Shown: positions 35,197 to 58,964, counted from the first letter of the stretch. The stretch is DNA of 64,000 bases from an uncultured Verrucomicrobiales bacterium (GCA_937905985.1 CALCWC010000026.1:24376-88375), one strand, 5' to 3'. Numbers and translations: made by a program. Notes: generated by a model not told the origin, from the letters alone.

Positions 35197-35198
35197 AC

Positions 35199-35270: not shown

Positions 35271-35280
35271 CTCTCAAAAA

Positions 35281-42000: not shown

Positions 42001-42229
42001 CCAACACCACCTTCGGCATCAGCAGGGCCGTCTTGCCGCCCATATTGTCGGCATCGCCGGATTTCACCTTCTCCGCCAAGTACTCCTTGAGCCTGCGCCC
42101 GCTCTCAGCCGTGGGCACCACCACCGTGGCATGCGCAAAATCGCGCGCGCGCTTGGCCGCCAGTTCCAACAAAAGGTCGCCAACCTCTTCCACGGCAGAC
42201 CTCTCCCAGCCTATATGTTCGATATTCAT
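39083..42229 (-). CDS. addB: AddB-like PD-(D/E)XK nuclease subunit
   Basis: 1048 aa, ending 12 nt upstream of addA. The C-terminal nuclease motif is RADRIDRKP...WRIIDYKT...QLPLYAHW. No clear Walker A or Fe-S cysteine cluster was seen by eye. Confidence 0.8.
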   Translation of the reverse strand: MNIEHIGWERSAVEEVGDLLLELAAKRARDFAHATVVVPTAESGRRLKEYLAEKVKSGDADNMGGKTALLMPKVVLVGHLISSEHPRAATAQEEFAAWVEVLSAQPPHEKWPHLFPEQITEKHLFTWAMNAASSLASLHSLLEKYEVTTQGVVKHLNGGFAAPETDLQKWKGVTDNEVLRWGEIQQIFNAVESTLDRWDRIPAWKVRADEVAHLRHHRPGTLLFVACIPEITPQTESYLQAVERRWPGTVTVWVNAPNEEQWRAMFDAAHCGRPKVGPWSVYEPNPGTLRDEQIYVEGTAVKMAQRAVACAKGVAPEDVVLASCDASFSPYIETEFRRYGWQLHLPEGRTMMNTDALAIPGQLAACCAEPESVAALEPLLRNVVVQRCFAREGWDGYAFGLVLDKLVKLYFPARTGYLLDLLNVKKHLPALRNAIGKLPGAETEADPEATDELDVIFLERDRRAEYSFYASDVCRFVQRCREDLPAALKELCDRLHQRCAQDGGSTAVEEDEEAAARAAARVAGYGAAVSAFKATLAEFKAFLDRHPMDSRKALAILDHLLSQSGMQVQTQRREHTHADLLGWRELPYSRGGTIILTGFHHGCVPEAVAHDSFLPDSVKEALGLPCAKAREARDMFILMSLLMRKNCNVRILLSRMSADGSGSLVSPSSLLLHCSADELVPRVKDKLYREIPVEDDGADHGRVWRLRGGGADEPKAAGMESIALLGPGNDNKFRNMKFSPSDINAFLTCPLRFWMKQILGISTWDIHPDDKVEMEANEFGNMVHHLAEDVARHYPAMKEGLTEDEVKHYAQERLEARFAERYGQTRLASLEIQRQRIADLLPAFVHWHFTGLQDGWECYDCEHKVTDWEIPLQDGSVAKLNMRADRIDRKPCEGGYTWRIIDYKTHEYKPWSKHTSTMADEKYFEELMPGFPLLVWKERGRCWTDVQLPLYAHWLKETMQCSEFPAVAYYNMPRKPGRPAAYSEMTEMSAAPGAWENVMQWAKSAMLCMKDGLCLYSAESLGRTSYSAFSAMANLQDPRNLFGNLRNL

Positions 42230-43536: not shown

Positions 43537-43653
43537 GCAACCACTATACACGAAACCCCATCTGCAGTCAACGTGCGGCGCGGAAGAAAAAAATTGACTT
43601 CTTTCTGCATGTGATGCAAGATACCGATAAGGACTCAACCTGAACACAAAGCC

Positions 43654-45393
43654 ATGCCAGAAGAAAACGAAGGAAATCAATTTCGCTCACAAGGCACTGC
43701 AAACGAGCAAAACTCAGACCGCTCCATCACTGCAGAAAATTTTAAAAGATACTTTGAAACCCACAAAAGCAATTTTCAAGACTCCGCGCTCGATGATATT
43801 ATTAATCCAAAGAAATGGTGGGGTCTCGAAGGCAGGCTAAAAACAGAGAAATGCTTTGATGTTACGGATGGCGAGAATAAACTTTCCGTAAATGAATTGA
43901 ATTTATGCCCGCAATATAACAACTTCCAAGGTGCTTTCACTCTAGCAAAAGTGCATCATGTTGTAGTCATAAATTTTGAAACAAACGATGATACGCAAAA
44001 TCTTCAATGTATTAGAATAAAATACTTCTATTATTTATGCGATAAGTTAAAGGACCACCCAAGCAACTGGAAGATATTCATCCAAGATGAGTCAAGCCCA
44101 CACGCAAAACAGAATCCCTCAGCGCGGAATCGCCGCATGCTAAAAATTTTCTTTGACAACGGCATTACCGGAACGACGGATGAGGATTTTCAAAAATGGA
44201 TCGGACTCTTCGATGAAGTATATAACTTTCTGGCTGAAAACCGACCAAGTCCAGATGAGCTCAACACGATTCCAACGCCAGACTACACTTCAGGCTGGAA
44301 GGTACGTGGCCCTTTGGAAGGTTTTTGCCAAAAAACATACAACGCGAACATGAATACAGATACTGAAAAAAAAGATAAGATAGAAGCTCGCAACTGCATA
44401 TGGGCGGGTGCCCCAGGAACGGGTAAGAGTTTTAAATTGAATCAAGCAGCGAACATCCAGTTCGAAGATAAAACCATGCGTGTAACATTCCACCCGGAAT
44501 ACACCTACTATGATTTTGTGGGAACATACCGTCCCAGAATGGCAAAGAACGACGAGGGCAATACGATGGGGAAAATAGAGTATGCCTTTGTTCCCGGACC
44601 GTTTGCAAAGATGCTCAAAAAAGCCCTTTGGAACCGAAATGCAAATTACTGCCTGATTATTGAGGAAATCAACCGCGCCAACGCGGCGGCCGTGTTTGGC
44701 GATGTGTTCCAGCTATTGGACCGAGCTTCACAAAACAGCAAGGACGGCAGCGTGGTAAAGCATGAAAGCGAGTACGCTATTTGTCCCTCCGAGGAACTTT
44801 ACGAGTACTTGCTGAATGAGCGGGAAGGCAACAAAGAGATGCCAGGCACACGCCCAAGTGACGGTATCATGAACGAACTGCGCTTGCCCGACAACTTGTA
44901 CATCTGGGCCACCATGAACAGCGCAGACCAGGGGGTGTTCCCCATGGACACGGCATTCAAACGCCGCTGGAGCTTTGAGAACATGGCTATCAATCCCTCA
45001 GAGGGGCAAGATCCTGACTACGATTCAAAGAGCGCTTGGGACAAGATTCGCAGGGGCATCAACGATATGCTGCTGAAACATCATGTGCAGGAAGACAAAC
45101 TGATGGGATACTACTTCTTGAAGAAGGAAGAGCGGGATAGCAAAGAAAACTTGGAAAAAGCACTTAAAGAGAAGGTGTTGCTGTACTTGTTTGAGGATGC
45201 TGCAAAACCATTTAGGGGAAAAATATTCAAGAATGAGTACAATACTTGTGAAAAATTGCGAGGGAAACTCGTTGTAGATGATCCGAATCTCGGCGTATTC
45301 TTTGAAAAAGTGTGGGATGGCATACCGCAACAGTCGAAGCCAGAGGACACTAAACAAGCAACTGAAGACGTTGACAACGACGACAATCCGTAA
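43654..45393 (+). CDS. McrB-like AAA+ GTPase (LlaJI.R1-like) with uncharacterised N-terminal domain
   Basis: 579 aa. Walker A is GAPGTGKS, Walker B is LIIEEINRAN. McrB signatures MNSADQG and AFKRRW are present. The first ~240 aa are AT-rich and unassignable by eye. Confidence 0.85.
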   Translation: MPEENEGNQFRSQGTANEQNSDRSITAENFKRYFETHKSNFQDSALDDIINPKKWWGLEGRLKTEKCFDVTDGENKLSVNELNLCPQYNNFQGAFTLAKVHHVVVINFETNDDTQNLQCIRIKYFYYLCDKLKDHPSNWKIFIQDESSPHAKQNPSARNRRMLKIFFDNGITGTTDEDFQKWIGLFDEVYNFLAENRPSPDELNTIPTPDYTSGWKVRGPLEGFCQKTYNANMNTDTEKKDKIEARNCIWAGAPGTGKSFKLNQAANIQFEDKTMRVTFHPEYTYYDFVGTYRPRMAKNDEGNTMGKIEYAFVPGPFAKMLKKALWNRNANYCLIIEEINRANAAAVFGDVFQLLDRASQNSKDGSVVKHESEYAICPSEELYEYLLNEREGNKEMPGTRPSDGIMNELRLPDNLYIWATMNSADQGVFPMDTAFKRRWSFENMAINPSEGQDPDYDSKSAWDKIRRGINDMLLKHHVQEDKLMGYYFLKKEERDSKENLEKALKEKVLLYLFEDAAKPFRGKIFKNEYNTCEKLRGKLVVDDPNLGVFFEKVWDGIPQQSKPEDTKQATEDVDNDDNP

Positions 45394-45405
45394 CCCCCCG
45401 TGATA

Positions 45406-46833
45406 ATGGCAGAGGAGAAACTGGCACAGGTGTGGGCTAGGGAGCAGCAGCACTACAACTCTCAGCGGATGCGGGAGTTGCTGGGCATCGGCTATTCCGA
45501 GGAAGATGACAAACGCTTGTCAGATGCCCTGCAGCAGCTTAAGTGTGCCAAAATCCTGCGCACGGTCGTTACAAAATCTGACGAAGCCTATGATACAGAA
45601 GACGATGATACGGACTCATCTTGGGACAGTCGGTACATAAACAAATACGACTACTGTTTCCGGTATGTGGGATTGATTCAGTTCGGCAAGCGTGTTCTAT
45701 ATATTTTGCCCAAGTATTGCGCCGAAGTAAAAGACAACGCCCAATCAGAAGCGCGCATGGAGTCATTCCGCACCGTCATGCGGGTCATTGCCCGCTACAA
45801 AAAGGAAGCCAGCAGCACAGGCGAGGAGGATTCGGAGGATGCTTGGCATGATTTTCTTCATGTCATGGTGGAGCTGGTGATGGATTTCCAGGCGAACGGC
45901 GTATACCGGGTGAATGAGAACATCAACGAGCTGAACGGCAAGGGGCGCATCATGTGGCCGCGCACCATCCGGAGGGTGTTGCCGCTCATTCAGGACGGAC
46001 GCCCCTACTACATGGAGTTGCACACGCGCAGGAAGCAGGCGGACACTGCCCATATCATCACGCGCCTGCACAAATATCTCGTATGGCAAGCGTGGCAGAA
46101 ATTGGAGGAGCTCCATCTGTCGGATTTGCTGGAGCTTCCCGCCATAACAGATCCGCCCGACCACGATGAGGAATTTTCAGATTTGGAATATCTGGTGCGC
46201 ATAATCAAGAAAGAGCAAACCCAGCGGTTCGACAACCGCCGGCGGTACCTGCTGGACCTGATGCTGCGTTATCTTGAGGAGAAGGAAGAAGATACGACGG
46301 ACGGCATATACCTGTTCGGCAAGAGCGGTTTCCATGTTGTGTGGGAGGAAGCCTGCCGCGTGGCGTTCGGCATGGAGAAATCCACCCCGGAGCAGATGGA
46401 GGCATCCAAGCCGAAATGGAATTTTGTTGGCGCCAAAGACGTATACCGCGGCTCTGCACTGGAAGCCGACATGGTGAAAGTTGACGGGAACAAACAGACT
46501 TTCACCATTTATGATGCCAAATACTATGTACCCCCAAAAGGTTGCGAGGCGGAGGATATCGTGAAAAAAATGCCAGGCGGCTATGATGTCATCAAGCAGC
46601 AGTTGTACGAGCTGGCACTGAAAAACAGATACCCGGAGTACAAAATCACCCAGAATGTGTTCATCTTACCTATGATGGAAGGCGATGATTCTGGCGATGG
46701 TGTCAACATGGGCACGGTCCGCGTGCCCATGCTTGAGGAACTGGAGCTTGCGCCTGTGGAAATATGCAAGATGAAACCTGACACCATTTGGGAAGCCTAC
46801 CTGAATCACAACACCATCGACATTCCAAAATGA
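45406..46833 (+). CDS. LlaJI/McrC-like restriction endonuclease subunit
   Basis: The start is the ATG at 45406 (or the GTG at 45400), 12 nt after the McrB-like stop. The C-terminal PD-(D/E)XK-like segment is LEADMVKVDG...TIYDAKYYVPP. 475 aa. Confidence 0.7.
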   Translation: MAEEKLAQVWAREQQHYNSQRMRELLGIGYSEEDDKRLSDALQQLKCAKILRTVVTKSDEAYDTEDDDTDSSWDSRYINKYDYCFRYVGLIQFGKRVLYILPKYCAEVKDNAQSEARMESFRTVMRVIARYKKEASSTGEEDSEDAWHDFLHVMVELVMDFQANGVYRVNENINELNGKGRIMWPRTIRRVLPLIQDGRPYYMELHTRRKQADTAHIITRLHKYLVWQAWQKLEELHLSDLLELPAITDPPDHDEEFSDLEYLVRIIKKEQTQRFDNRRRYLLDLMLRYLEEKEEDTTDGIYLFGKSGFHVVWEEACRVAFGMEKSTPEQMEASKPKWNFVGAKDVYRGSALEADMVKVDGNKQTFTIYDAKYYVPPKGCEAEDIVKKMPGGYDVIKQQLYELALKNRYPEYKITQNVFILPMMEGDDSGDGVNMGTVRVPMLEELELAPVEICKMKPDTIWEAYLNHNTIDIPK

Positions 46834-46843
46834 TATAAGCCCC

Positions 46844-48118
46844 TCACTCCGTGGCTCCGGCGGCTTGGAGGAGTTGGATGCATTCCGCGTGGGTGGGGGT
46901 GCAGTTGTTTTCGCGGGCGGCTTTGAGGGCGGTCATGCCGTGGAAGCGACCGCCTTGGACCTTGGCGTTCACGTTGGCGCCGGACTCGATGAGCAGGCGG
47001 GCGCAGTCTGCGTGGCCGCGGTGGCAGGCCATCGACAACGCGGTGATGCCCTCCTGGGTCTCGGCATTCACATCCGCGCCCGCCTCGATGAACTGGCGGG
47101 CGAGCTCCCCGAAATTGCGGAAGACCGCGTATATCAGGGGGGTGTAGCCCTCTTTGTCCTGCACGGAGACATCCGCGCCAGCGGCCAGGAGAAGGTGCGC
47201 GCATTTACCGTACCCCTCTTGGCATGCTTTCATCAGAGCGGTCTCACCATACGAGTTTCTGGCGTTCACGTCCGCCCCCGCCGCAAGCAGCACGCGGGCG
47301 CAATCCTCATCGGAGCATGAAAAGAGGAGAGGTGTATTGCCGAGGCTGTCGGTGGCATTGACATCTGCGCCCGCCTCAATGAGCATGCGCGTGAATTCCA
47401 CGGATCCCCCACCGCAGATACGCATCAGGAGCGTGCTGCCGTCCGGACCCGTGCCAACCCAGTCGCGCGCACCCGCGGCGTTCACATCCGCGCCCGCGGC
47501 AATGAGTATGCGCGCGAGCTCCATATCGTTCATCATGCAGGCATACGCCAGTGGAGTGGAGCCATGCCAGTCCGCAGCGTTCACGTCGGCTCCGGATTCC
47601 AGCAGCAGTCGGGCGAGCTCCGCTTTGCCCCTCTTGCAGACGCGCATCAGGGCGGTCATGCCCCACACGTCCGCGGCATTCACGTCCGCGCCCGCTTCAA
47701 GGAGCGGCCGCACAAACTCCCCGTTCCCCTCACTGCACGCATACATCAAGGGAGTTTGCCCTTCCCAGTCCCTGGCGTTCACGTCCGCGCCCGCATCCAG
47801 CAGCATGCGGAAGCACTCCGCGTGGCTTTTCCGCAAGGCGGCATGCAAGGCGGTTGCGCCGCCACGATTCTTGAATTCCCTTTTGTAGTACACATTCACG
47901 TCAGCCCCGGCGGCAATGAGCGCCCGCAGGCAGTCCGCGCGCCCCGACACAGCGGCGAGCGTCAGCGGCGTGTGTCCGTCAAAGACCTTGTGATTCATCT
48001 TCACATTCACGTCAGCCCCGGCGGCAATGAGCGCCCGCAGGTCATCGAGCTCGCCCATGTACGCGGCGTAGAGGAGGTCGTTCTCCATGGAATTGGTGTT
48101 TGGATCGCTTGTTTTCAT
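46844..48118 (-). CDS. Ankyrin-repeat-only protein (~11-12 repeats)
   Basis: 424 aa with an ATG start and no signal peptide. It has 33-residue repeats with TPLxxAxxxGxxxxxxxLIxAGADVN. A perfect 40-bp internal DNA repeat occurs at 47891-47930 and 48002-48041. Confidence 0.9.
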   Translation of the reverse strand: MKTSDPNTNSMENDLLYAAYMGELDDLRALIAAGADVNVKMNHKVFDGHTPLTLAAVSGRADCLRALIAAGADVNVYYKREFKNRGGATALHAALRKSHAECFRMLLDAGADVNARDWEGQTPLMYACSEGNGEFVRPLLEAGADVNAADVWGMTALMRVCKRGKAELARLLLESGADVNAADWHGSTPLAYACMMNDMELARILIAAGADVNAAGARDWVGTGPDGSTLLMRICGGGSVEFTRMLIEAGADVNATDSLGNTPLLFSCSDEDCARVLLAAGADVNARNSYGETALMKACQEGYGKCAHLLLAAGADVSVQDKEGYTPLIYAVFRNFGELARQFIEAGADVNAETQEGITALSMACHRGHADCARLLIESGANVNAKVQGGRFHGMTALKAARENNCTPTHAECIQLLQAAGATE

Positions 48119-48139
48119 ATCGGTGTATGGGGTTGGGGG

Positions 48140-49525
48140 TTACTCGGCAAAGCCGATGGGTTTGCGGTGGTTGTTTCGGGCTTCCTGATGTTGGAGCAAA
48201 TCGTCGATGGCGAGGGAAAGGTCCGCCTCCTCCACGCGCTTGCGGCGGGCGCGGGCGGCACACATGGCGGCCTCGTCCACCGCGTGGGTCACATCGGAGA
48301 GCGGGTGGTCCAGCAAGCGCTCCGCGTGCGGGCGCAGGCCAAACTCCTGGTGCGGGCGCTTCTCCAGCGCATGCGCCAGCACCTCCTGCACCTCCTCCAG
48401 GGAGGGCATGCCCACCCTGATGTGCGTGCCCAGACGCCCGGTGCGCAGGATGGCGGGGTCGACAGACTCGATGTGGTTGGTCATGCCGGCCACTAGGATA
48501 TGCCTCTCCTCGGCACGCTGCAGGCATTGCAAAAAGCTGTCCACCTCCTCCACCCTGTGGTTGTCATGTTCGGAAAGATTGCCGCGGTTGCGGGTGAAAG
48601 CCTCCATTTCGTCAATGATGACGATGGAGGGAGCGTTCTCTGCGGCCTCTTGGAACTTCTCCTGAATCTTCTTGGAGGTACCGTGGATGAAGGTGCTGCC
48701 AATGCTGCCGGAATCGATGCGAACGATATTCCACTTGAGATGTTCTGCCAGACGCTCCACGGCAAAGGTCTTGCCGCAGCCGGGCGGCCCCTCCAGGATG
48801 AACCCCTTGGGGAAGTGGATGCCGAGCAGGGCGTAGTGTTCACTGTTGTTGACGATGTCCACCACCTGCTCGTTGAGGAACTTTTCCAGTTCCTCGCGGC
48901 CGCGAAGCCGGAAGGGCCCCTCCGTGGGATTCAGGAGCTTGCGCTCCTCCTCGCGGGCGGCTGCGTCCGCGCGCAGCTGCTCCAGCTCCGCCTTGAACTC
49001 GTCCGCCACCTCCAGCGGCTTCTCGTCCACATGCTCGTCGAAGTAGTGCACCATGGCGGTGTACACGCGCGGGGGCATCATGCGGGCGGCGTAGGCGTCC
49101 GCAAGCTCGCGGTTGAAATGCTGGCGGATGAGCACCGTGAACGTGGCATCGTCCACGTCCTCCAAGTTCATGATACGGAGCCTCTTCACAAACTCCTCAA
49201 TGCCCGGAATCTGCCGCGTCGGGCCCATCTTCTTGAAGAGCCTCAGCACCTCTTCCTTGCGTTCTTCCTGCGGAGACTTCTCCGGCTTGCCGTCGGTTTC
49301 GGTTTCCTGCTTGTCGAGCACCCGCCTGCGACGCAGCGGACGCGGCATCTCCGGCTCGCCCTTGAGCTTGTCGATGGCATCCAGGAGGATTCGGATTTCG
49401 CGTTCATGCGCCTTGGCCTGGTCGACCAGCAGGTCCGCCTGCTGCTTGACCATTTCTTCCAGTTCCCGCTTCTTCATAGACTTTTTCGGGGCCGTGCCCT
49501 TTGTGTTTTTGGTGCTCTTTTGCAT
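48140..49525 (-). CDS. Classic-clade AAA+ ATPase with Lys/Glu-rich coiled-coil N-terminal half
   Basis: 461 aa with an ATG start. Walker A is GPPGCGKT, Walker B is IVIIDEME. The second region of homology is DPAILRTGRLGTHIRVGMP. The stop lies 21 nt upstream of the ankyrin gene ATG. Confidence 0.9.
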   Translation of the reverse strand: MQKSTKNTKGTAPKKSMKKRELEEMVKQQADLLVDQAKAHEREIRILLDAIDKLKGEPEMPRPLRRRRVLDKQETETDGKPEKSPQEERKEEVLRLFKKMGPTRQIPGIEEFVKRLRIMNLEDVDDATFTVLIRQHFNRELADAYAARMMPPRVYTAMVHYFDEHVDEKPLEVADEFKAELEQLRADAAAREEERKLLNPTEGPFRLRGREELEKFLNEQVVDIVNNSEHYALLGIHFPKGFILEGPPGCGKTFAVERLAEHLKWNIVRIDSGSIGSTFIHGTSKKIQEKFQEAAENAPSIVIIDEMEAFTRNRGNLSEHDNHRVEEVDSFLQCLQRAEERHILVAGMTNHIESVDPAILRTGRLGTHIRVGMPSLEEVQEVLAHALEKRPHQEFGLRPHAERLLDHPLSDVTHAVDEAAMCAARARRKRVEEADLSLAIDDLLQHQEARNNHRKPIGFAE

Positions 49526-49680: not shown

Positions 49681-49774
49681 TGACTTCGAGTGTGTTGTGA
49701 TTCACAGGATGGTCGCAGTATAATACAACGGATCCCCCTTGTCAAGCCAAATCGTCTTTCCCTTGTCGATTTTC

Positions 49775-50170
49775 CCGGCCAACACCCACCCGGCATCGCC
49801 GCACTCTTCCAATGCAACGGAAACCAGGTGGCCTACGCAGAGCAGGACATCGACGCCATCGATTCCCTCAACGGAAAGGAAGTCTGGGTTTCCGGCACCA
49901 TCGACCGCCTCGTCCTCACCATGCAAGGCGGCGCCGTCGCCGCCGCAAGCATCATCGACTTCAAGACCGACAAGCGCCGCGGCCCCACCCCCCAGGACGA
50001 GGACGCCACCCTGCGCGAACACCACTTCCCCCAAATGAAGGCCTACCACAACCTCGTCTCCTCCGCCTTCTCCCTCCCCTCCCACAAGGTCACCGTCACC
50101 CTAGTCTCCTGCCCCTCCAACTCCGCTCCCCCCCCGCGCCATCCCCTACCCACCGGACACCCAGTGGTAA
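49775..50170 (+). pseudogene. 3' remnant of a second addA-like helicase-nuclease gene (junction repeat R1)
   Basis: It encodes ...HPPGIAALF...AEQDIDAIDSLNGKEVWVSGTIDRLVL...IIDFKTDK...FPQMKAYHNLV..., collinear with the last ~125 aa of AddA (NEQDIDYIDTMDGKEVWVSGVIDRLVV...IYDYKT...AAQMSAYRKAV). No 5' part is present. Confidence 0.7.
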
Positions 50171-50208
50171 TGTCGTATAACCGCGAATTCAGGAGTTTCA
50201 CATTTTGC

Positions 50209-50238
50209 TTGCCCGCCCGCCCGAGCGCGTGGTAGACT
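50209..50238 (+). promoter_or_regulatory. Promoter copy following R1
   Basis: TTGCCC-18nt-TAGACT preceded by GTGG. It parallels the GTGGTATACA box at 52223 and the GTGGTAGATT box at 53535. Confidence 0.4.
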
Positions 50239-50283
50239 GCGGGTGGACTGTCTGGAACTGCACCCCCTCACGCTCCGGGCGCA

Positions 50284-50496
50284 ATGCTATACAAGGTTAT
50301 GAGTGACGACAAGATACACGCGGTTGGCAGGAACATCGCTGAAAAGGCCACCAAGATTGGCTATGAGATACCCATGACCAGGTACTTCTACAAGTACCAG
50401 CCGCCTGAACCGGCGGAGGACATCGCCGCACGCATCACGTCCTTGGAGACCGACATTGCGAACACCCTGAAAAGTCTTTTCCACAAGGAGGATTGA
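50284..50496 (+). pseudogene. 3' remnant of a type I hsdM-type methyltransferase gene
   Basis: The 70-aa ORF ...KIGYEIPMTRYFYKYQPPEPAEDIAARITSLETDIANTLKSLF matches, from memory, the GYEI-x-F-x-RYFY-x-Y-x-PPR...EI C-terminus of HsdM proteins. The catalytic N-terminal ~400 aa are absent. Confidence 0.55.
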
Positions 50497-50564
50497 GCCG
50501 AATGATACATCCGACATTTGCAACAACTGAGGAATATACAAGCTGCCACCCCTACTGATACATC

Positions 50565-51644
50565 ATGGAAACATCCAAGATTTTTGAGCTTCAACAGCAT
50601 TTTGACACCCTTGCCCACCACATACAAGGCGAACCCGCCTTGGAATATTGGACTGCCAGAGAATTGCAGCCCCACTTCGGATACAGCAAATGGGAGAATT
50701 TCGAATCCGCCATCGAGAAAGCAATGACATCTTGCCAAAATGCCGGCGGAACAGTTTCTGACCACTTCCTTCGCTTTGAAGAATCCCGCACAACAGGGAA
50801 AGGTGCCTCTCTGTCCATTTGCAACTACAAACTTACCCGTTATGCATGCTACCTCATTGCTCAGAACGGCGATCCAAGGAAATCGGAAATTGCCTTTGCT
50901 CAAAGTTATTTTGCGGTTCAAACCCGTCGCACAGAGATAATAAGCGAGCGTATTGCATTCATAGAGCGTTCTACTGCCCGCAATCAATTGAGAGCAGCAG
51001 AAAGAGAATTATCCCAAAATATTTATGAACGAGGGGTCGATGATGCGGGATTTGGACGAATCCGTTCCAAGGGTGACCAAGCTCTATTCGGTGGAAATAC
51101 GACGGCTGACATGAAGGCAAAATTCAATGTGGCCCAGCACCGCCCCTTGGCGGATTTTCTTCCGACCGTGACTATAGCGGCAAAGAATCTTGCCACCGAG
51201 ATGACTAATTACAATGTCAAGCAGAATGATTTGCATGGTGAGCAGCCTATCACAAAAGAGCATATTCACAACAATGCCTCTGTTCGCAAAATGTTGACTG
51301 ACCGCGGAATCTATCCTGAAAACCTGCCTGCAGAGGAAGATTTTGCAAAACAGGAACGGAGAGCCAAGGCTGACGCAAGGAAAATTCAAGCCTCTAGACT
51401 TACCCAAGCAACAGAGACAGTTTCCCTGCCGAACCAAACCTCCCTTCAGCTTCCCCATCCTGATGATGAAAAACTTCTGCGCTTCCTTGCCGCCCACCCT
51501 GCCGCTTCTTACAAGGATGTCAAACAAGCTCTCGACATTAGTCCGGCTACATTCTATCGCCGCACGGCGGCTCTGCAAAAAATAGGGATTCTTGAGAGAT
51601 GCGGATCCGCTCGCAAAGGCACTTGGAAAGTATCTTTCCCCTGA
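50565..51644 (+). CDS. dinD: DNA-damage-inducible protein D (DinD) with C-terminal wHTH extension
   Basis: 359 aa. WTARELQPHFGYSKWENF...LTRYACYLIAQNGDPRKSEIAFAQSYFAVQTRR closely parallels E. coli DinD. The tail (...YKDVKQALDISPATFYRRTAALQKIGILER) looks like a winged helix. Confidence 0.85.
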   Translation: METSKIFELQQHFDTLAHHIQGEPALEYWTARELQPHFGYSKWENFESAIEKAMTSCQNAGGTVSDHFLRFEESRTTGKGASLSICNYKLTRYACYLIAQNGDPRKSEIAFAQSYFAVQTRRTEIISERIAFIERSTARNQLRAAERELSQNIYERGVDDAGFGRIRSKGDQALFGGNTTADMKAKFNVAQHRPLADFLPTVTIAAKNLATEMTNYNVKQNDLHGEQPITKEHIHNNASVRKMLTDRGIYPENLPAEEDFAKQERRAKADARKIQASRLTQATETVSLPNQTSLQLPHPDDEKLLRFLAAHPAASYKDVKQALDISPATFYRRTAALQKIGILERCGSARKGTWKVSFP

Positions 51645-51905
51645 TGCGGTTATAATCGCTATCAATCACTATCACGTGACCTCGGACAACACTGGCAAAT
51701 GTGAACGCAACACATTTATTATAAACTCTTTAATCAATTTCCCGACGTCGGGAAGTTGATACGCCAACCAAAGGACTTCCTTATGCATTTCATCTCGCCA
51801 GTTCCAATGTCTTTCAGGTCTCTTGGATTCCGCATTCATCCAGCAGACCTCGGCAAGCGCCTCGCCCGCCTCGTCGGTCTTGGCCTGCTTAAACCCTCCG
51901 GACGC

Positions 51906-52100
51906 GGCCGCGGCCCCACCCCCCAGGACGAAGACGCCACGCTGCGCGAACGCCACTTCCCCCAAATGAAGGCCTACCACAACCTCGTCTGCACCGCCTT
52001 CAACCTCCCCTCCCACAAGGTCACCGTCACCCTCGTCTCCTGCCCCTCCAACTCCGCCTCCCCCCGCGCCATCCCCTACCCCCCGGACACCCAGTGGTAA
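51906..52100 (+). pseudogene. addA-like 3' end, junction repeat R2
   Basis: 51909-52100 aligns with 49976-50170 (about 195 bp, roughly nine-tenths identical by eye). It encodes GPTPQDEDATLRERHFPQMKAYHNLV...KVTVTLVSCPSNSA... Confidence 0.7.
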
Positions 52101-52202
52101 CGCAGAACCGCCCACCACCAATTCCTGGGCATCCCATGCACCGCCATGGATTCCCGCCCCCGGCACACTTGCGCGCATTTGCGACATTTTTTCATTTGGG
52201 GC

Positions 52203-52232
52203 TTGACTCGGCAACACAAGATGTGGTATACA
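52203..52232 (+). promoter_or_regulatory. Promoter copy following R2 (drives Abi gene)
   Basis: TTGACT-18nt-TATACA with an extended TGg. Confidence 0.45.
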
Positions 52233-52335
52233 GGAACCACGAAGCGGTTCCGAAAGGACGTCGCCCCGCGACGCATAAATCCGCATGTTCTATTTGCCGC
52301 CAGGTCTCAAGCCCGGCGGCATCTTATTTCCACCC

Positions 52336-53316
52336 ATGTCCATCAAACCGTTCAAGACGTACGCTGAACAGGCATCCATCCTTATCTCCCGCGGATTGGG
52401 GGATGAGGCTATTCGGGGCGTGATGGAGCGCCGCTTGGCTGCTGTCGGGTACTATCGCTTGTCGGCATACAGCTACCCGTTTCGGAAAACGGTAGAAAAC
52501 GACGGGCAGGTACAGAAACTGAATGAATTCCGCGAGGGAACAACGTTTGACCGAGTGTGGGATTATTACCTGTTTGACCGACGTCTGCGTTTGTTGATTA
52601 TCGATGCCATTGAGCGCGTGGAAGTGGCGTGGCGCGTCCAAATCGCATACGAATGGGCATTACGGGAAGGCATCCCAAATCCGCAGAGCAGGCCAGGCAG
52701 CTTTGCCACCAAGTTCCGCAAGATATCGAAGGAGGAGCGCCTGAAAACTTTTCAGTACTACTACAACATCAGTACCGAGGACTTTGCCTGTCACCATCGG
52801 GAAGATTTGAAAATCGCAAAGGTGGAGGATTTGCCCGCATGGGTGTTTATCCAGTTTTCCACATTCGGCAGCTTGCACAAACTGTTTGAGGATGGTTTGC
52901 CTTTAGGACTCAAGCAAACGATTGCACGTCGTTTCGGCTTTCAAGATGAGGGCTTTTTCACCCAGGTGTTCGCCTTGCTCCTGGCTGCCAGAAACGCATG
53001 CGCCCATCATGCTCGCGTATGGAACAAGGAATGGTTGTACGATGCCGAGAACGATAAGCATCCTTTGCGAAAGAGGTTCGTCTCCATTTGCGGCCTGACA
53101 TCGGATCCGAACTGGTCCTCGCTCATGGCGCAATTCGACCGCACCAAAACGGCATTCCTACTCTCCTTGCTGTGCGTCCTGCTGAAGAAAACGGCATCTA
53201 CCAGTCATTGGAAGGACAGGGTAAAGAAGCTCTTGACAGAACGGGCGCCCGTTCCCAGCATAACCCGGGAAATGGGCTTCCCTGTAGGCTGGCAGCAGCA
53301 TCCCCTGTGGAAATAA
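52336..53316 (+). CDS. Abi-like (Abi_2/AbiD-F family) abortive infection protein
   Basis: The ATG at 52336 gives MSIKPFKTYAEQASILISRGL...LAAVGYYRLSAYSYPFR...LAARNACAHHARVWN, hallmarks of Abi_2. 326 aa. Confidence 0.8.
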   Translation: MSIKPFKTYAEQASILISRGLGDEAIRGVMERRLAAVGYYRLSAYSYPFRKTVENDGQVQKLNEFREGTTFDRVWDYYLFDRRLRLLIIDAIERVEVAWRVQIAYEWALREGIPNPQSRPGSFATKFRKISKEERLKTFQYYYNISTEDFACHHREDLKIAKVEDLPAWVFIQFSTFGSLHKLFEDGLPLGLKQTIARRFGFQDEGFFTQVFALLLAARNACAHHARVWNKEWLYDAENDKHPLRKRFVSICGLTSDPNWSSLMAQFDRTKTAFLLSLLCVLLKKTASTSHWKDRVKKLLTERAPVPSITREMGFPVGWQQHPLWK

Positions 53317-53390
53317 CCCTCCCCCCGCGCCATCCCCTACCCGCCGGATACGCCGTGATAACGGCCACCACCCATTTACCCGAATTCAGG
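53317..53390 (+). repeat. Junction repeat R3 (tail of addA-like gene plus downstream flank)
   Basis: CCCTCCCCCCGCGCCATCCCCTACCCGCCGGATACGCCGTGATAA starts immediately after the Abi stop. It matches 50121-50170 and 52052-52100. The downstream CGAATTCAGG is shared with R1. Confidence 0.7.
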
Positions 53391-53516
53391 CACAGAAAAA
53401 AGGTATATACAAGGAGCAATACGTTTTCCAGAATTCCCGCCCACCATGCGCTTTGGCGGCATTTTCTTTTGTAATACACAAACATGAATTTCATCGCCAA
53501 ATTTGCTCTTTTCTTC

Positions 53517-53544
53517 TTGCATGAAGCATGAGATGTGGTAGATT
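53517..53544 (+). promoter_or_regulatory. Putative hsdRMS promoter (copy following R3)
   Basis: TTGCAT-16nt-TAGATT with an extended TGg. The 50-nt leader contains GGTTAGCGCTACCCGCTAGCGGTTAG. Confidence 0.5.
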
Positions 53545-53594
53545 ATTGGGTTAGCGCTACCCGCTAGCGGTTAGTCAGAGTCGTTATACCCACC

Positions 53595-55961
53595 ATGGCC
53601 CCTATTCAATCCAAAAAAGAGATGAGTGAAGAGGATATCAAACGCCACTTCATCACACCCGCTTTGGAACGGCGGTGGGACAAGATGCAAATCTCCATGG
53701 AGGCCCCGATTACAGACGGCAGGGTCAATATCCAGGGCAACAAGCCCGTCCGGGAGAATCCCAAGAAGGCGGATTACCTGCTCTACTTGAACGACAACAA
53801 CCCCATTGCCGTGGTGGAGGCCAAGGACAACAAGCACAGCATCACGGCGGGCTTGCAGCAGGCCATGGAGTACGCGCAGATGATGGATTTGCCCTTTGCG
53901 TACAGCTCCAACGGCGACGGCTTCGCCGAGCATGATTTCCTGACCGGGAAGGAACGCATCTTCGGCATGGAGGAGTTCCCCACGCACGATGAGCTGGTGG
54001 CGCGCTTCTACGCGGCGCAGAACGGCGGCCAGGGTATCTCCGAGCCCCAGCAAAGGGCCATTGAGCAGCCCTATTATTCCGATATCAAGACACCCACCCC
54101 GCGCTACTACCAGCGCGTGGCCATCAACCGCACCATGGATGCCGTGGCGCGCGGACAAGACCGCATCCTGCTCGTCATGGCCACCGGCACGGGCAAGACC
54201 TACACCGCGTTCCAGATTGTCCACCGCCTGCTCAAAAGCGGCATGAAGCGCCGGGTGCTCTACTTGGCAGACCGCAATTTCCTGGTGGACACCTCCATCC
54301 AGCAGGATTTCAAGCCGCTGGAGAAGGTCACCCACAAGGTCAACTACCAGAAGGAGGACCCCGCCACCACCACCTCCTACCAGATGTATTTCTCCCTGTA
54401 CCAGCAGCTCGTGGGCGAGGACGGAGAGGAGGAGCATTACCGCACCTTGTTCACGGAGGACTTCTTCGACCTCATCATCGTGGACGAGTGCCACCGCGGC
54501 TCCGCCAAGGCGGATAGCCAGTGGCGCCGCGTGCTGCAGTATTTCAAGGGTGCCACGCAAATCGGCATGACCGCCACGCCCAAGGAAACCACGTACGCAT
54601 CCAATATCGACTACTTCGGCGAACCTCTATACACCTACAGCCTCAACCAGGGTATACAGGATGGTTTCCTCGCTCCCTTCCGCGTGATTACGCCACTCCT
54701 CAACATTGCAGAAGGGTGGCGGCCGTACAAGGACCAGGTGGACAAGTTCGGCAACCCCATCGAGGACCGCATCTACAACAACTGCGATTTCGACCGACAT
54801 ATCGTCCTAGAGGACCGAACGAGGGAGGTTGCCCAAACTGTCACCAACTTCCTGAAACGCACGGACCGCATGGCTAAGACCATTGTGTTCTGCGTGGATG
54901 AGGATGCGGCAGAGCGCATGCGCATGGAGCTCTCCAACATGAACGCCGACTTGGTGAAGCAAAACCCGGATTACGTGGTGCGTATCACCGGCAGCGATGT
55001 CTACGGCAAGAAAAAGCTCTCAGCCTTCCTCTCCGTGGGTGAGAAATACCCGGTCATTGCCACCACCTCCATGCTGCTCACCACTGGCGCAGATTGCAAG
55101 ATGACCAAGCTCATCGTGCTGGACAAGACCATCGGCTCCATGTCCGAGTTCAAGCAAATCATCGGGCGCGGCACCCGCTTGCGCTTCAATGACGGAAAGA
55201 CGCATTTCACCGTCATGGATCTGCGGCAGGTCACGCGCCTTTTTGCCGACCCGGATTGGGACGGTCCCATCATCCAAGACCCGGACTACGACCCCGAAGG
55301 AGGCAATGATTTGCAGGGAGGGGAAAATCTCCCGCCAGATCCGCCGCTGCCCCCGCTGCCGCCTCACCAGCACCACTACAAGCCCATCGTAGCCGCGGAC
55401 GGCTGCCGCGTGGAAACCACCCTCGTCACCGTGGCATACTATGATGCCGACGGCAGGCTGCTGCGCCAGGAAAGCATCACGGACTACACCAAAAAGAACG
55501 TCATGGCCGAGTACGCCTCGCTGGACGGTTTCATCCGCCACTGGTCCGCCGCCGACAAGAAGGCGCAAATCAAGTCCATGTTTGCAGAAAAGGGCATCGA
55601 CCTGGAGGGCGTGAAGAAAGAACAGGGCATGGAGGGTGTGGACGATTTCGATTTCATCTGCCACGTCGCGTTCGGCAGAAAGCCCCTCACCCGCCGTGAG
55701 CGTGCCAACAACGTCCGCAAGCAGGATTTCTTCGGCAAGTACAGCGGCCCCGCACGAGAAGTGCTGGAGGACCTGCTGGACCGCTACGCGGATGTGGGCG
55801 TGTACGAGCTGGAGGACATGAACGTGCTGAAGCTGGAGCCCTTCTGCCGAAGGGGCGCCGTGGCGCAAATCATCGGTGCCTTCGGCGGCAGGGACAACTA
55901 CCTCAGCGCTGTCCGCGAACTGGAGCGCGCCATCTATTCATCACAGGCTGTTAATTTATGA
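53595..55961 (+). CDS. hsdR: Type I restriction enzyme R subunit (EcoEI-like C-terminal domain)
   Basis: 788 aa. The N-terminal PD-(D/E)XK motif is DYLLYL...AVVEAKD. Helicase motifs are MATGTGKT, DECHR and MTATP. The C-terminal region resembles EcoEI_R_C. Confidence 0.92.
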   Translation: MAPIQSKKEMSEEDIKRHFITPALERRWDKMQISMEAPITDGRVNIQGNKPVRENPKKADYLLYLNDNNPIAVVEAKDNKHSITAGLQQAMEYAQMMDLPFAYSSNGDGFAEHDFLTGKERIFGMEEFPTHDELVARFYAAQNGGQGISEPQQRAIEQPYYSDIKTPTPRYYQRVAINRTMDAVARGQDRILLVMATGTGKTYTAFQIVHRLLKSGMKRRVLYLADRNFLVDTSIQQDFKPLEKVTHKVNYQKEDPATTTSYQMYFSLYQQLVGEDGEEEHYRTLFTEDFFDLIIVDECHRGSAKADSQWRRVLQYFKGATQIGMTATPKETTYASNIDYFGEPLYTYSLNQGIQDGFLAPFRVITPLLNIAEGWRPYKDQVDKFGNPIEDRIYNNCDFDRHIVLEDRTREVAQTVTNFLKRTDRMAKTIVFCVDEDAAERMRMELSNMNADLVKQNPDYVVRITGSDVYGKKKLSAFLSVGEKYPVIATTSMLLTTGADCKMTKLIVLDKTIGSMSEFKQIIGRGTRLRFNDGKTHFTVMDLRQVTRLFADPDWDGPIIQDPDYDPEGGNDLQGGENLPPDPPLPPLPPHQHHYKPIVAADGCRVETTLVTVAYYDADGRLLRQESITDYTKKNVMAEYASLDGFIRHWSAADKKAQIKSMFAEKGIDLEGVKKEQGMEGVDDFDFICHVAFGRKPLTRRERANNVRKQDFFGKYSGPAREVLEDLLDRYADVGVYELEDMNVLKLEPFCRRGAVAQIIGAFGGRDNYLSAVRELERAIYSSQAVNL

Positions 55962-57433
55962 GCAACGTATCGAGCTTTGTCAAACGTTTCCGCGACATCA
56001 TGCGGAACGACCCCGGTATCAACGGCGATGCCCAGCGCATCGAGCAGATTGCATGGATGCTTTTCCTCAAGGTCTACGACACCAAGGAGGCCGACTGGGA
56101 GGCCACCGAGGAGGATTACAAGTCCATCATCCCCGAACAATGCCGCTGGAGAAACTGGGCCGTGGACGACAAGCGCGGGCGCGCCTCCACCGGTGACGAG
56201 CTGCTGGAGTTTGTGAACGCCAAGCTCTTCCCCACGCTCCAGACACTGCCCGTTACCAGCAACACGCCCGTGCGGCAGGCCATCGTTCAGGCTGCCTTTG
56301 CAGACGTACACAACTACATGAAAGATGGCGTGCTGCTGCGCCAGGTGCTCAACGTCATTGACGAGCTGCGGCTCGACGACTACACGGAAAGCCACGCCTT
56401 CGCGGAGATTTACGAGTCCATCCTCCGCGAGCTCCAGAGCGCCGGCAGCTCCGGCGAGTTCTACACGCCGCGCGCCGTTACCGATTTCATCGCCAAGATG
56501 GTACAGCCCAAAATCGGCGAGACGATGGCGGACTTCGCCTGCGGCACCGGCGGCTTCATCACCTCATGGCTGAAGGTGCTTCAAAATCAAACAAAGCGAG
56601 TGGAAGATGTATCCACGCTCAATTCTTCCTTCTACGGCATCGAGAAGAAGCAATTCCCCTACACCCTTTGCATCACCAACCTCTTGCTTCATGGCTTGGA
56701 CTCCCCCAACGTGGTGCACGACAACTCGCTCTCCCGCGATTTGCTCGACTACACCGAGAGAGACGCCTTTGACGTCATTCTCATGAATCCTCCATACGGC
56801 GGCGCGGAAAAGGATTCCATCAAGCAGCACTTCCCCGCAGATTTGGCCAGCAGCGAGACCGCGGACCTCTTCATGGCCGTCATCCTCCGCCGCCTCAAGC
56901 GCGATGGCCGCGCCGCTGTCGTCCTGCCGGACGGCTTCCTCTTCGGAACGGATGGCGCCAAGGTCGCACTGAAGAAGAAGCTGCTCAAGGAGTTCAACCT
57001 CCATACCATCGTGCGCCTTCCCGGAAGCGTGTTCGCACCGTACACCTCCATCACCACCAATATCCTTTTCTTCGACCACACCCAACCCACCAAGGAGACC
57101 TGGTTCTACCGCTTGGATATGCCCCAGGGCTACAAGCATTTCTCCAAGACCAAGCCCATGCTGCTGGACCACTTCGCCCCCGTCATCGAATGGTGGAACA
57201 AGCGCAAGCCTATTCAGGAAGACGGCTTCGACAAGGCCCGCAAATTCTCCGCCAGGGAGCTGGCGGACAACGGCTACAACCTCGACCTCTGCGGCTTCCC
57301 CCACAAGTCGGAGGAAGTGCTCGATCCCCTCGACCTCATCCAGCAGTACCAGGAGCGCCGCGCTTCCCTCAACGCCAAGATTGACCGCACCCTCGCGGAT
57401 ATCACGGCCATGCTCAAAGGAACAGAAGAATGA
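55958..57433 (+). CDS. hsdM: Type I restriction-modification methyltransferase subunit
   Basis: 491 aa with an ATGA overlap with hsdR. The AdoMet motif is DFACGTGGF and the catalytic motif is NPPYGG. An HsdM_N-like N-terminus is present. Confidence 0.95.
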   Translation: MSNVSSFVKRFRDIMRNDPGINGDAQRIEQIAWMLFLKVYDTKEADWEATEEDYKSIIPEQCRWRNWAVDDKRGRASTGDELLEFVNAKLFPTLQTLPVTSNTPVRQAIVQAAFADVHNYMKDGVLLRQVLNVIDELRLDDYTESHAFAEIYESILRELQSAGSSGEFYTPRAVTDFIAKMVQPKIGETMADFACGTGGFITSWLKVLQNQTKRVEDVSTLNSSFYGIEKKQFPYTLCITNLLLHGLDSPNVVHDNSLSRDLLDYTERDAFDVILMNPPYGGAEKDSIKQHFPADLASSETADLFMAVILRRLKRDGRAAVVLPDGFLFGTDGAKVALKKKLLKEFNLHTIVRLPGSVFAPYTSITTNILFFDHTQPTKETWFYRLDMPQGYKHFSKTKPMLLDHFAPVIEWWNKRKPIQEDGFDKARKFSARELADNGYNLDLCGFPHKSEEVLDPLDLIQQYQERRASLNAKIDRTLADITAMLKGTEE

Positions 57434-58890
57434 CACCGGAACAGCTCAAAGCCAGCATCCTTCAGCTCGCCATCCAAGGCAAGCTCGTTCCCCAGCGCCC
57501 CGACGAAGGCACAGCAGAGGAATTCTACCAACAAATCCAGAGGGAAAAGAAAAAGCTCACCGCCGCCGGCAAGCTCAAGAAAGAAAAGCCCCTCCCTCCC
57601 ATCTCAGAAGACGAAATCCCCTTCGATATTCCAGAATCTTGGAAGTGGGTAAGGCTGGGGGAAATAGCGAAAGTTTTGGGTGGCAAGCGTATACCTGCTG
57701 GTAGAAGATTGACAATTGAAAATACAGGACATATTTATATCCGTGTATCGGATATGAAAGACGGCAGCGTATCAATGGAGAAATTGCAATATGTGCCATG
57801 TGATATCTACCAGTCAATATCCAAGTATGTTATACAAAAGGAAGATGTATACATCACAGTAGCTGGAACAATAGGGCGCGTGGGTAAAATACCAGCTCAG
57901 TTGGATGGCGCGAATCTCACAGAAAATGCTGACCGACTTATTATAAAGGAAATTAATCAAGATTGGTTCATATATTCCTTGAGTTCTTTCTGTGTACAGG
58001 AACAAATTGCAAATTGCACCACTAAGGTTGGACAACCTAAATTGGCAATCAAAAGAATTGAAGCGTTCCTTATCCCTCTCCCCCCATTGGCAGAGCAGCA
58101 GCGCATTGTGGAGAAGATAGAGCAGATGCTCCCGCTGGTGGAGCAGTACGGCGAAGCCTACACCGTCTTGGAATCCCTGGATGCCCGTTTCCCGGACGAC
58201 ATGCGCAAGAGCATTCTCCAGTACGCCATCCAAGGCAAGCTCGTTCCCCAGCGCCCGGAAGAAGGCACCGCAGAAGAACTCTACCAGCAAATTCAGAAGG
58301 AAAAGAAGAAGCTCAACGCCGCAGGCAAGCTCAAGAAAGAAAAGCCCCTCCCTCCCATCACAGAAGAAGAAATTCCCTTCGATATCCCAGATTCCTGGAA
58401 GTGGGTGCATATGGGGGATATATTCGCGCACAACACAGGCAAGGCGCAAAATTCCACTGCTGAAACGCGGAACGGCATTCTCCGAAAGTTTATCACAACC
58501 TCAAACGTGTACTGGAACCGCTTCGATTTTTCCAAAGTGAAAGAAATGCTGTTCACCGAGAATGAAATCGAAAAATGCACTGTACAAAAAGGGGACTTGC
58601 TCGTGTGCGAGGGAGGTGATTGTGGTAGGGCCGCCATCTGGCAAGATGACGAGAGCATGTGCATCCAGAACCATATTCACCGGCTTCGCCCCTATGTGGG
58701 TGTGGAGATCATGTTCTTCTATTACGTTTTCTGGTTATTGAAGCAGACTGGTTATTTAAACGGCAAAGGCGTAGGCATCAAAGGGCTATCAAGCAATACG
58801 CTCCACAAACTCCCATGCCCCTTGCCACCCTTGAAAGAGCAGCGCCGCATTGTAGAGAAGATGGTTGAAATACCGCCTATAATAAGTTGA
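57430..58890 (+). CDS. hsdS: Type I restriction-modification specificity subunit
   Basis: 486 aa with an ATGA overlap with hsdM. Two AT-rich target recognition domains are each preceded by a conserved region (ILQ.AIQGKLVPQRP.EGTAEE.YQQIQ.EKKKL.AAGKLKKEKPLPPI) and followed by PLPPL.EQ.RIVEK. Confidence 0.92.
   Translation: MTPEQLKASILQLAIQGKLVPQRPDEGTAEEFYQQIQREKKKLTAAGKLKKEKPLPPISEDEIPFDIPESWKWVRLGEIAKVLGGKRIPAGRRLTIENTGHIYIRVSDMKDGSVSMEKLQYVPCDIYQSISKYVIQKEDVYITVAGTIGRVGKIPAQLDGANLTENADRLIIKEINQDWFIYSLSSFCVQEQIANCTTKVGQPKLAIKRIEAFLIPLPPLAEQQRIVEKIEQMLPLVEQYGEAYTVLESLDARFPDDMRKSILQYAIQGKLVPQRPEEGTAEELYQQIQKEKKKLNAAGKLKKEKPLPPITEEEIPFDIPDSWKWVHMGDIFAHNTGKAQNSTAETRNGILRKFITTSNVYWNRFDFSKVKEMLFTENEIEKCTVQKGDLLVCEGGDCGRAAIWQDDESMCIQNHIHRLRPYVGVEIMFFYYVFWLLKQTGYLNGKGVGIKGLSSNTLHKLPCPLPPLKEQRRIVEKMVEIPPIIS
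57468..57650 (+). repeat. hsdS conserved-region direct repeat (partner at 58224-58405)
   Basis: About 180 bp are repeated within hsdS at high identity. This is the normal architecture that permits target-recognition-domain shuffling. Confidence 0.8.
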
Positions 58891-58964
58891 AATTGGTAGC
58901 AACAAAGAAAAGAAGTAGAAATGTGCTTCAGAAGAATATTTAAAATTCAATTAGAAAACTGTAT

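Follow-up and report, generated by a model that had tools for sequence, protein, structure and literature searches.

Why does the 3' end of one gene stand three times, in the same direction, along a short stretch of bacterial DNA, each time in front of another set of anti-phage genes? The question is raised by positions 49775 to 53544 of a 64,000-nucleotide (nt) stretch from an uncultured Verrucomicrobiales bacterium (GCA_937905985.1, CALCWC010000026.1:24376-88375), referred to here in its full length as the window. A preliminary description of the window had noted that copies of an addA-like gene tail (R1, R2 and R3) separate an hsdM remnant with dinD, an Abi_2 gene, and an hsdRMS operon with a KAP gene, and had proposed a cassette-accreting hotspot at one anchor sequence with no recombinase nearby. 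Our analysis points, with a probability that we put at roughly 60%, to these repeats being scars left where genes were exchanged repeatedly, and without an integrase, at a defence hotspot seeded from the addA-linked site of another lineage.

Source of the repeated sequence

One sequence is present in three direct copies on the plus strand. R1 (49786-50172) holds the last ~128 codons and the stop codon of a foreign addA gene whose 5' part is absent, R2 (51907-52102) holds the last 64 codons and stop codon of an allele other than R1's, and R3 (53318-53363) holds the last ~14 codons, directly 3' of the stop codon of the Abi gene. A repeat search of the window found a 159-nt pair (49976-50134 and 51907-52065, 94% alike) and a three-copy 46-nt family (50127-50172, 52057-52102 and 53318-53363, 89-91% alike), and blastn aligned R1 with R2 over 209 nt at 92.3%. 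The 26-nt core pattern CCCCGCGCCATCCCCTACCCNCCGGA matched the window exactly 3 times, compared to 0.00 matches expected from 100 dinucleotide-preserving shuffles. Within the core, the 22-nt stretch CCCCCCGCGCCATCCCCTACCC is identical across R1, R2 and R3, and outside this stretch the cores are alike at 89-91% only. Alignment of the three segments shows homology of 89-94% that is more than a shared run of C residues, and the copies lie where the preliminary description had placed them, with the correction that homology in R1 begins at 49786-49789 and not at 49775. Past the stop codons the spacers are diverged copy by copy, with homology turning patchy after 10-65 nt; downstream of R3, patchy spacer similarity extends up to about 53390. 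R2 and the copies in relatives are in frame through to ...SPRAIPYPPDTQW*, the asterisk being the stop codon, and a single extra C at 50128 in the window's R1, absent from relatives, shifts the frame of its last 14 codons.

The translation of R1 gives the last ~128 residues of the AddA nuclease domain (GTIDRLV...DFKTD...QMKAY), which match Pfam PDDEXK_1, the C-terminal PD-(D/E)XK part of AddA, and are collinear with it to the stop codon. R1 does not belong to a complete addA with UvrD helicase domains: the DNA upstream of 49786 shows no relation to addA, and next to it, on the opposite strand, lies an AAA ATPase gene. The window has an intact resident addA (35498-39070, minus strand, 1190 amino acids (aa); Pfam UvrD-helicase, UvrD_C and PDDEXK_1), which is not the source of the repeats: its tail, residues 1061-1176, is only 44% identical in protein to R1. 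A degenerate-pattern scan of one genome per GTDB species instead found L017, a metagenome-assembled genome (MAG) listed as 'MAG: Akkermansia sp. isolate S28M_St_metabat_105', in which the last 384 nt of an intact addA (1139 aa, with addB ahead of it) are 93.8% identical in DNA to window 49789-50172 and form the true end of the gene. Beyond the tail, AddA and AddB of the window and of L017 are just 30-38% identical in protein, and among the loci fetched the window's AddA and AddB are nearest to those of L017, at only 30% identity. The G+C content is 65% for R1, which is that of a core gene, 66% for L017 addBA and 38-56% for the cargo. On these sequence comparisons, the repeat is a piece of another lineage's addA and neither a resident relic nor a second resident paralogue. 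What had been taken for a further addA-like gene is thus the 3' end, carried along as a hitch-hiker, of a gene from a distant lineage.

Broader searches with the tail returned little. Among 5.8 billion proteins, a word-indexed search found only fragments of 113 and 105 aa and no full-length AddA. The exact 26-nt core pattern had no match in GTDB species representatives or JGI metagenomes, and it was too strict for this purpose, because L017 and a relative of the window (L001, described below) read CCAGA where the pattern has CCGGA. Nineteen JGI metagenome loci with a 19-nt core were set aside as chance matches, the similarity going no further. PADLOC and Pfam, run on the tail alone, returned no defence family.

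Over their common 195 nt, R1, R2 and the L017 allele are about equidistant at 92.9-94.4% (R2 is 94.4% identical to R1 and 92.9% to L017, and R1 is 93.9% identical to L017). R1 and L017 are separated by 14.5 synonymous and 16.5 non-synonymous changes, where neutrality predicts about 1:3, and the ratio of non-synonymous to synonymous change (pN/pS) is 0.2-0.5 in most pairs of tail copies. Because the substitutions are biased to synonymous ones and the alleles are equidistant, the copies look like alleles that diverged inside working addA genes and not like recent copies of one another. The pN/pS below 1 had also prompted the idea that the tail is a functional mini-protein, which was dropped because of the frameshift in the window copy and the far smaller length of R2 and R3.

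Within 80 nt of the L017 addA stop codon lies a gene for an SNF2 helicase, followed by DUF4391, methylase and type III-like Res genes. Since defence genes directly follow the stop codon, the site after addA appears to be a defence site in the L017 lineage. L017 is also what the search of related genomes for an intact addA followed by one cargo unit, proposed in the preliminary description, brought to light.

Shared anchor and changing cargo in relatives

Relatives of the window, here contigs from other samples of the same species retrieved by look-up with exact proteins, share the anchor and carry different cargo behind it. L001 and L119 have the same left junction (found in L005 as well), R1 and the spacer F1 that follows it, and then a full operon of hsdM (588 aa), hsdS and hsdR together with a helicase gene. 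L001 continues to a right boundary matching window 61969-62089; the core is single-copy in L001, as it is in L017, and L001 shows the single anchor with a single cargo unit that had been predicted for relatives. On the 30.7-kb contig of L003/L005, addB is followed by the left island, R1, the dinD unit and R2, and in L005 a different hsdM (499 aa) begins 64 nt past the R2 stop. In L098 the window-type hsdRMS unit stands behind a tail of at least 81 nt, not behind the Abi stop codon and 46 nt.

A further arrangement was found in L118 (Logan SRR28795352), where the interior of the ankyrin gene (window 47283) is joined to a 431-nt tail on a CCCCCGC microhomology. This tail is 49 nt longer than R1 and is of the R2 type with the F2 spacer. 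Past the F2 spacer, at L118 760-1248, the final 21 nt of Abi_2, stop codon included, are followed, with no R3 core, by a new gene whose product begins MANSFHQLLDK... and has, by eye, an Mrr-like N-terminus, making a fourth cargo type behind the anchor. By our reading of the sequence, Abi has lost most of its length between two GCATCCC copies, an apparent microhomology deletion. No invariant structure was seen at the shared anchor, as L001/L119, L005, L118 and L098 all differ in cargo, and the flanks (the addB side and 61969-62089) are conserved around defence content that differs among the window, L001, L005 and L118.

The copies also vary in where they begin. Across copies and strains the tails start 431, 383, 195, at least 81 and 46 nt before the stop codon, with no fixed att boundary, and there are at least two independent left junctions. 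On the other side, the R2 flank is common with L005 to 52166 and with L118 to 52138. Because the start positions vary, the junctions are more readily explained as illegitimate or homologous joins than as an att site, and the anchor sequence proposed in the preliminary description is not a single defined site. Read by eye, the left junction of R2 (window 51895-51912) lies within GACGCGGCCGCGGCCCC, which holds a NotI-type palindrome, GCGGCCGC, and the corresponding place in R1 reads AAGCGCCGCGGCCCC. From this difference at the same place, the R2 join was probably made on a short GC-rich microhomology.

Comparison of the window with L005 showed a step in divergence at the repeats. There are 16 differences in R1 (49813-50128), 4 in the stretch from 50129 to 51917 that holds the spacer, the hsdM remnant, dinD and a remnant open reading frame (ORF), and 11 in R2 (51918-52091). 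Between these strains the dinD cassette is thus 0.2% diverged and R1 and R2 are 5-6% diverged, with the left flank overall at about 2.4%. Given 4 differences against 16 and 11, the common ancestor of the dinD cassette is much younger than that of the repeats that bound it, as the exchange of individual cassettes by crossing-over within the repeats would predict. In other samples, the copies are patchworks of segments of the R1, R2 and R3 types.

The preliminary description had each copy followed by a related promoter. Three 10-mers of the form GTGGTAKAYW were found in the window, compared to 0.23 expected for a pattern that was built from these same sites: GTGGTAGACT at 50229-50238, GTGGTATACA at 52223-52232 and GTGGTAGATT at 53535-53544. 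They can be read as extended -10 elements (TGnTAnnnT), the one after R2 without the final T, and those after R1 and R3 are kept in relatives; a sigma-70 scan called none of the three sites. The 10-mers therefore exist as described, but they fall outside the repeat, 57, 121 and 172 nt past the stop codons, in sequence not alignable between copies, and the cargo after R2 in L005 has a different promoter-like sequence, TTGACA-17-TATAAG. To judge from their position and surroundings, these putative promoters belong each to its own cargo.

Just left of R1, at 49695-49745, the sigma-70 scan called a divergent pair of strong sigma-70-like promoters. TTGACA-17-TATACT (11/12) faces the AAA and ankyrin genes and TTGTGA-18-TATAAT (10/12) faces R1, and the R1 stub may be transcribed from the latter.

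Explanations for the stacked modules

Our proposal begins in a distant Akkermansia-like lineage, in which the site just past the addA stop codon would be a hotspot of defence-gene exchange. DNA from this hotspot would have entered the present species, bringing with it the donor addA 3' end (R1), and the foreign addA would have been trimmed to a stub by later deletions or would have been a stub already on entry. Further modules would arrive in the form of addA tail, spacer and cargo, with the tail and spacer acting as a homology arm on one side of each module insertion. A long tail arm would recombine with the resident tail and replace the cargo, as between L001 and the window, whereas with a short arm or a failed crossover one end would be joined illegitimately, in a microhomology-type event, leaving a shorter tail before the older module (R2, R3). 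Neither a dedicated recombinase nor an att site would take part, and each module would supply its own promoter. The direct repeats could then serve as substrates for ordinary homologous recombination, by which cassettes would be swapped between strains, deleted, duplicated and reordered. Alternatively, the modules may have been displaced next to an intact addA in the donor and the whole stack transferred, or circularised fragments may have been inserted by single crossovers; the present data do not separate stepwise arrival, donor displacement and circle insertion. What the repeats are and where they come from is shown by the sequences, as are the changing cargo and tail lengths in relatives, the one left junction on a microhomology (L118) and the step in divergence at the repeats; the order of events, the dependence on RecA and the place of stacking, in the donor or in this lineage, are what we infer.

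Several points weigh against this proposal. A single genome with an intact donor-type addA was found (L017), so any statement on cargo variation at the donor's native site comes from that one genome. No truly empty site was seen among the relatives. All three window copies begin within 400 nt of the stop codon, and this nearness needs an ascertainment argument, namely that long arms replace cargo and short arms stack. Several informative relatives are short metagenomic contigs ending inside repeats, and some hybrid junctions could be assembly paths (compare L002, below). The pN/pS values are based on 10-30 substitutions per pair. Finally, the search for recombinases in this genome had the 64-kb window as its scope, and one encoded elsewhere in the genome is possible.

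A RecA-driven cassette cycle is an alternative that we consider unlikely. Two tails would recombine to give a circle with one hybrid tail, or a tandem amplification, which would re-enter any tail-bearing genome. A cycle of this kind has been proposed for restriction-modification (R-M) units (PMC2853133), and the dinD cassette is nearly identical between strains with differing flanking repeats. Contig L002 (Logan SRR28794759, 1960 nt) has identical first and last 30 nt (k-1), giving a 1930-nt cycle that equals the R1-R2 spacing and holds exactly one dinD cassette and an R2-left/R1-right hybrid tail. In L006 (SRR18398383), Abi with an R3/R1 hybrid is joined to F1-dinD via 21 identical nt, which is less than it takes to collapse a k=31 graph. 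The junctions in L002 and L006 match those expected from circles or tandem duplications and are to be taken as leads only. However, tandem duplication or another, static order of the genes gives the same junctions, and R1 and R2 share exact runs of more than 31 nt, so that L002 could be either a real circle or amplification or a cycle of the de Bruijn graph. The evidence is at the level of contigs, and by our reasoning the R1 and R2 differences between the window and L005 misfit one single-crossover insertion of the same circle. Similarly doubtful is the idea that the addA tail is a portable attachment arm that needs no integrase. If true, host homologous recombination would release the cassettes as circles or amplify them, they would re-enter tail-bearing genomes even across lineages with AddAB only about 30% identical, and the tail would do for anti-phage genes, by way of RecA, what an integron does for its cassettes. 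Its footprints would be the circular-looking L002, the Abi-R3/R1-dinD junction of L006 and a dinD cassette that hardly differs between strains whose repeats have diverged.

An origin of the copies within this genome, with R2 and R3 as old tandem duplications of R1 by unequal crossing-over and the cargo inserted later, is very improbable. The copies are all direct and close together, and R1 and R2 are found together in both the window and L005. However, R2 and the window's R1 are about as far apart (94.4%) as R1 and the foreign allele of L017 (93.9%), R2-type sequence with the F2 spacer also exists as the 431-nt tail of L118, and the hsdRMS unit in L098 has a longer tail before it. Each copy has its own diverged spacer, and the substitutions are like those of functional genes.

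We give equally little credence to site-specific accretion, in which the C-rich core of 22-46 nt would be an att-like site for a recombinase encoded elsewhere and modules would be inserted serially, as in an integron or in integrative and conjugative elements (ICE) and cis-mobilizable elements (CIME). Direct repeats from a gene 3' end do bound discrete modules, the 22-nt stretch is the same in all three copies, and the hybrid copies L006, L008 and L011 switch type in or near the core. However, R3 shares only 46 nt, so crossovers with R3 necessarily fall in the core. The differing start positions do not fit such a site, nor do the 150 nt of addA upstream of the core in R2, which are unexpected of an attR copy, or the 89-91% similarity of the cores outside the 22 nt. 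By Pfam and PADLOC, the ORFs of 42.3-62.3 kb are all free of recombinase domains, and so are L001, L003/L005 and L017; integrase, transposase and serine recombinase domains were all absent from the island and from these loci. No inverted repeat or dyad symmetry was found in or around the copies, the three repeat regions fold with the same energy as shuffled sequence (z = 0.07, 0.63 and -0.03), and Rfam at a permissive threshold had no match in 49-54 kb. The absence of a recombinase in or beside the island thus agrees with the preliminary description, and its outline of a cassette-accreting hotspot without one still stands; a single fixed anchor site and promoters within the repeat have to be given up.

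Two other candidates were rejected. An attC-like or terminator-like role of the copies does not fit single-strand folding that is no better than that of shuffles. Against a Tn7-like insertion 3' of a conserved gene stand the absence of transposition genes and the length of the duplications, which greatly exceeds a target duplication of 5 bp.

An assembly artefact, with strain variants mis-joined in what is probably a MAG and many related contigs breaking inside the repeats, is hardly credible, since independent assemblies reach across the junctions: L015 covers 50075-53886 at 99.9%, L096 covers 51953-62300 at 99.97% and confirms the order on to fucI, and L005 comes from another sample with a 30.7-kb contig spanning addB through R1, dinD and R2.

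Integrase-free gene swapping at a seeded hotspot has close parallels in known systems. Insertion with long target duplication, described for R-M units by Nobusato, Furuta and Kobayashi, concerns units of <20 kb with no mobility genes and direct repeats of ~46-420 bp; the repeats represent a single-copy target, often over a gene 3' end, and amplification and release have been proposed (PMC2853133). The present units are 1.9, 1.3 and 8.2 kb in size, with defence content by Pfam and PADLOC and no mobility genes found, and the repeats of 46-195 nt lie over the addA 3' end, which is single-copy in L017 and L001. In contrast to long target duplication, there are three serial copies of differing length in place of one pair, the cargo includes non-R-M genes (AbiD, DinD-like) and R-M wreckage, and the duplicated 'target' is a transplanted foreign gene fragment and not an intact resident gene. 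As for the empty site seen with such insertions, L001 has one tail with other cargo, and L118 is apparently without most of Abi and the R3 core.

A second parallel is provided by the orphan modules of Rhs and contact-dependent inhibition (CDI) loci and the effector-immunity arrays of the Vibrio cholerae type VI secretion system (T6SS). These arrays grow by displacement with a conserved upstream gene as anchor: newer modules shift their predecessors downstream, each predecessor retains a stub from the 3' region of the upstream gene, no integrase is involved, and homology-facilitated illegitimate recombination is the proposed mechanism (PMC5361080). The stubs R2 and R3 likewise precede the Abi and hsdRMS modules. 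Unlike the displacement arrays, the modules here are whole anti-phage operons with their own putative promoters past the stop codon and not alternative toxin C-termini paired with immunity genes. The array is headed by a truncated stub in the window, L001, L005 and L118, and an intact addA head is seen only in L017, where no stubs lie downstream.

The hsd 'immigration control region' of E. coli is a comparable core hotspot. Other core defence hotspots, such as cDHS1 of Pseudomonas aeruginosa, are without marks of mobile elements, and transfer by recombination in the flanks is suspected (PMC10250203). The window resembles hotspots of the cDHS1 type in its conserved flanks (addB and the boundary before fucI), its strain-variable defence content and the lack of an integrase. 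Such hotspots have been reported without internal scars, whereas here internal repeats of part of a flank keep a record of one event after another and indicate the donor lineage.

Cassette arrays separated by direct repeats are also known from integrons and from the tandem accretion of ICE, CIME and integrative and mobilizable elements (IME) at gene 3' ends. The cassettes here are likewise separated by direct repeats from a gene 3' end, but no integrase was found, there is no fixed repeat boundary and no attC-like hairpin, and the cassettes have their own promoter-like sequences. Where integron cassettes would be promoterless, each cargo here stands behind its own extended -10-like 10-mer, uncalled by the sigma-70 scan.

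Judged by these parallels, the locus is not a new kind of element, the same logic being known from R-M long target duplications and from Rhs and T6SS displacement arrays. What it adds is that the donor site can be named from the scars and that exchange is seen at the level of single cassettes, which makes the process unusually readable. How defence hotspots are built without mobile-element genes has been described as an open question (PMC10250203). Here each module keeps a flank piece that names its donor site (the addA end of another lineage), the junctions show illegitimate joins, and the divergence profile shows that cassettes are exchanged singly, the breakpoints falling within the repeats. 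This makes the locus well suited to testing how defence islands may be assembled from anchoring flanks without a recombinase.

Gene content of the island and its surroundings

The resident addB (39083-42229, minus strand; Pfam PDDEXK_1) is the conserved left flank of the variable defence region. Its cluster at >=90% identity has 12 members, and it is syntenic in L003/L005. To the right of addB, a low-GC region extends to about 62.1 kb and ends before fucI (62346-63896, minus strand). The right boundary of the variable region, at 61969-62089, matches L001 11495-11618 at 82% despite the other cargo there.

The left part of the island (42490-49525) encodes a HATPase protein, an McrB-like AAA_5 protein with a LlaJI nuclease, an ankyrin protein (PDC-M72A) and an IetA-like AAA ATPase, according to Pfam and PADLOC. 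It includes a low-GC stretch at 43-47 kb and is common to L005 with allelic differences. The McrB-like AAA_5 gene is one of these: window 43654-45393 and L005 3425-5446 are 65-69% identical and encode 579 and 673 aa, with flanks at 90-94%, which suggests allelic replacement of the specificity part of an McrBC/LlaJI-type system. A 625-nt stretch of the window (48232-48856) is absent from L001 and L005, where its two sides overlap by ~10 nt. Because of this extra stretch, the window has an IetA-like AAA ATPase of 461 aa where relatives have an ORF of 249-252 aa.

The cargo calls of the preliminary description were borne out by Pfam and PADLOC, and with cargo assigned between and after the copies, the repeats delimit discrete defence modules. 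The spacer F1 (50173-50283, plus strand), which heads the complete hsdM-S-R operon in L001, leads here to a 70-aa hsdM remnant (50284-50496, plus strand) with ~25 N-terminal codons fused in frame to ~50 C-terminal codons of another hsdM allele. Positions 50284-50358 lie inside a 96% match to L001 that reaches the start of its hsdM, and 50340-50496 match the end of the L001 hsdM at 78%. Next follows the Bro-N/DinD-like gene (50565-51644, plus strand), which belongs to the PADLOC candidate defence family PDC-S13 and is nearly identical in many samples. The last piece before R2 is an ORF remnant of ~50 codons fused to it (51756-51906, plus strand), with no Pfam match and with the same fusion in P0004/L002 and L005. 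We infer that it might be the C-terminus of a winged-helix protein.

Between R2 and R3 lies the Abi_2/AbiD abortive-infection gene (52285-53316, plus strand; Pfam Abi_2 7e-40, PADLOC AbiD), whose TAA at 53314-53316 directly adjoins R3, as the earlier description had it. After R3 come the type I R-M operon hsdR-hsdM-hsdS (53595-58890, plus strand; Pfam), an arrangement also found in L096, L097 and L098, and a gene for a KAP-family P-loop NTPase (58965-61577, plus strand; Pfam KAP_NTPase), the last cargo gene. With a GC content of 38%, compared to 60% for the window, the KAP NTPase gene is the most foreign-looking cargo, and its product has several predicted N-terminal hydrophobic stretches. The hsdS gene has an internal direct repeat of 213 nt (57454-57666 and 58210-58422, 87%). 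L097 and L098 have a 112-aa ORF after hsdM, followed in L097 by a separate piece, which suggests recombination between the halves of hsdS that would change specificity.

A smaller variable site lies just downstream of the resident addA. Two tRNA-Gln(CTG) genes with identical anticodon (34242-34314 and 35199-35271) stand around a 187-codon ORF, a C-terminal remnant of an AlbA_2/HATPase_c_4 gene that is intact in L003 (662 aa). At 34559/34560 the window is missing 1.24 kb that is present in L003, and the stretch from 34242 to 35271 looks like a small island inserted at tRNA-Gln.

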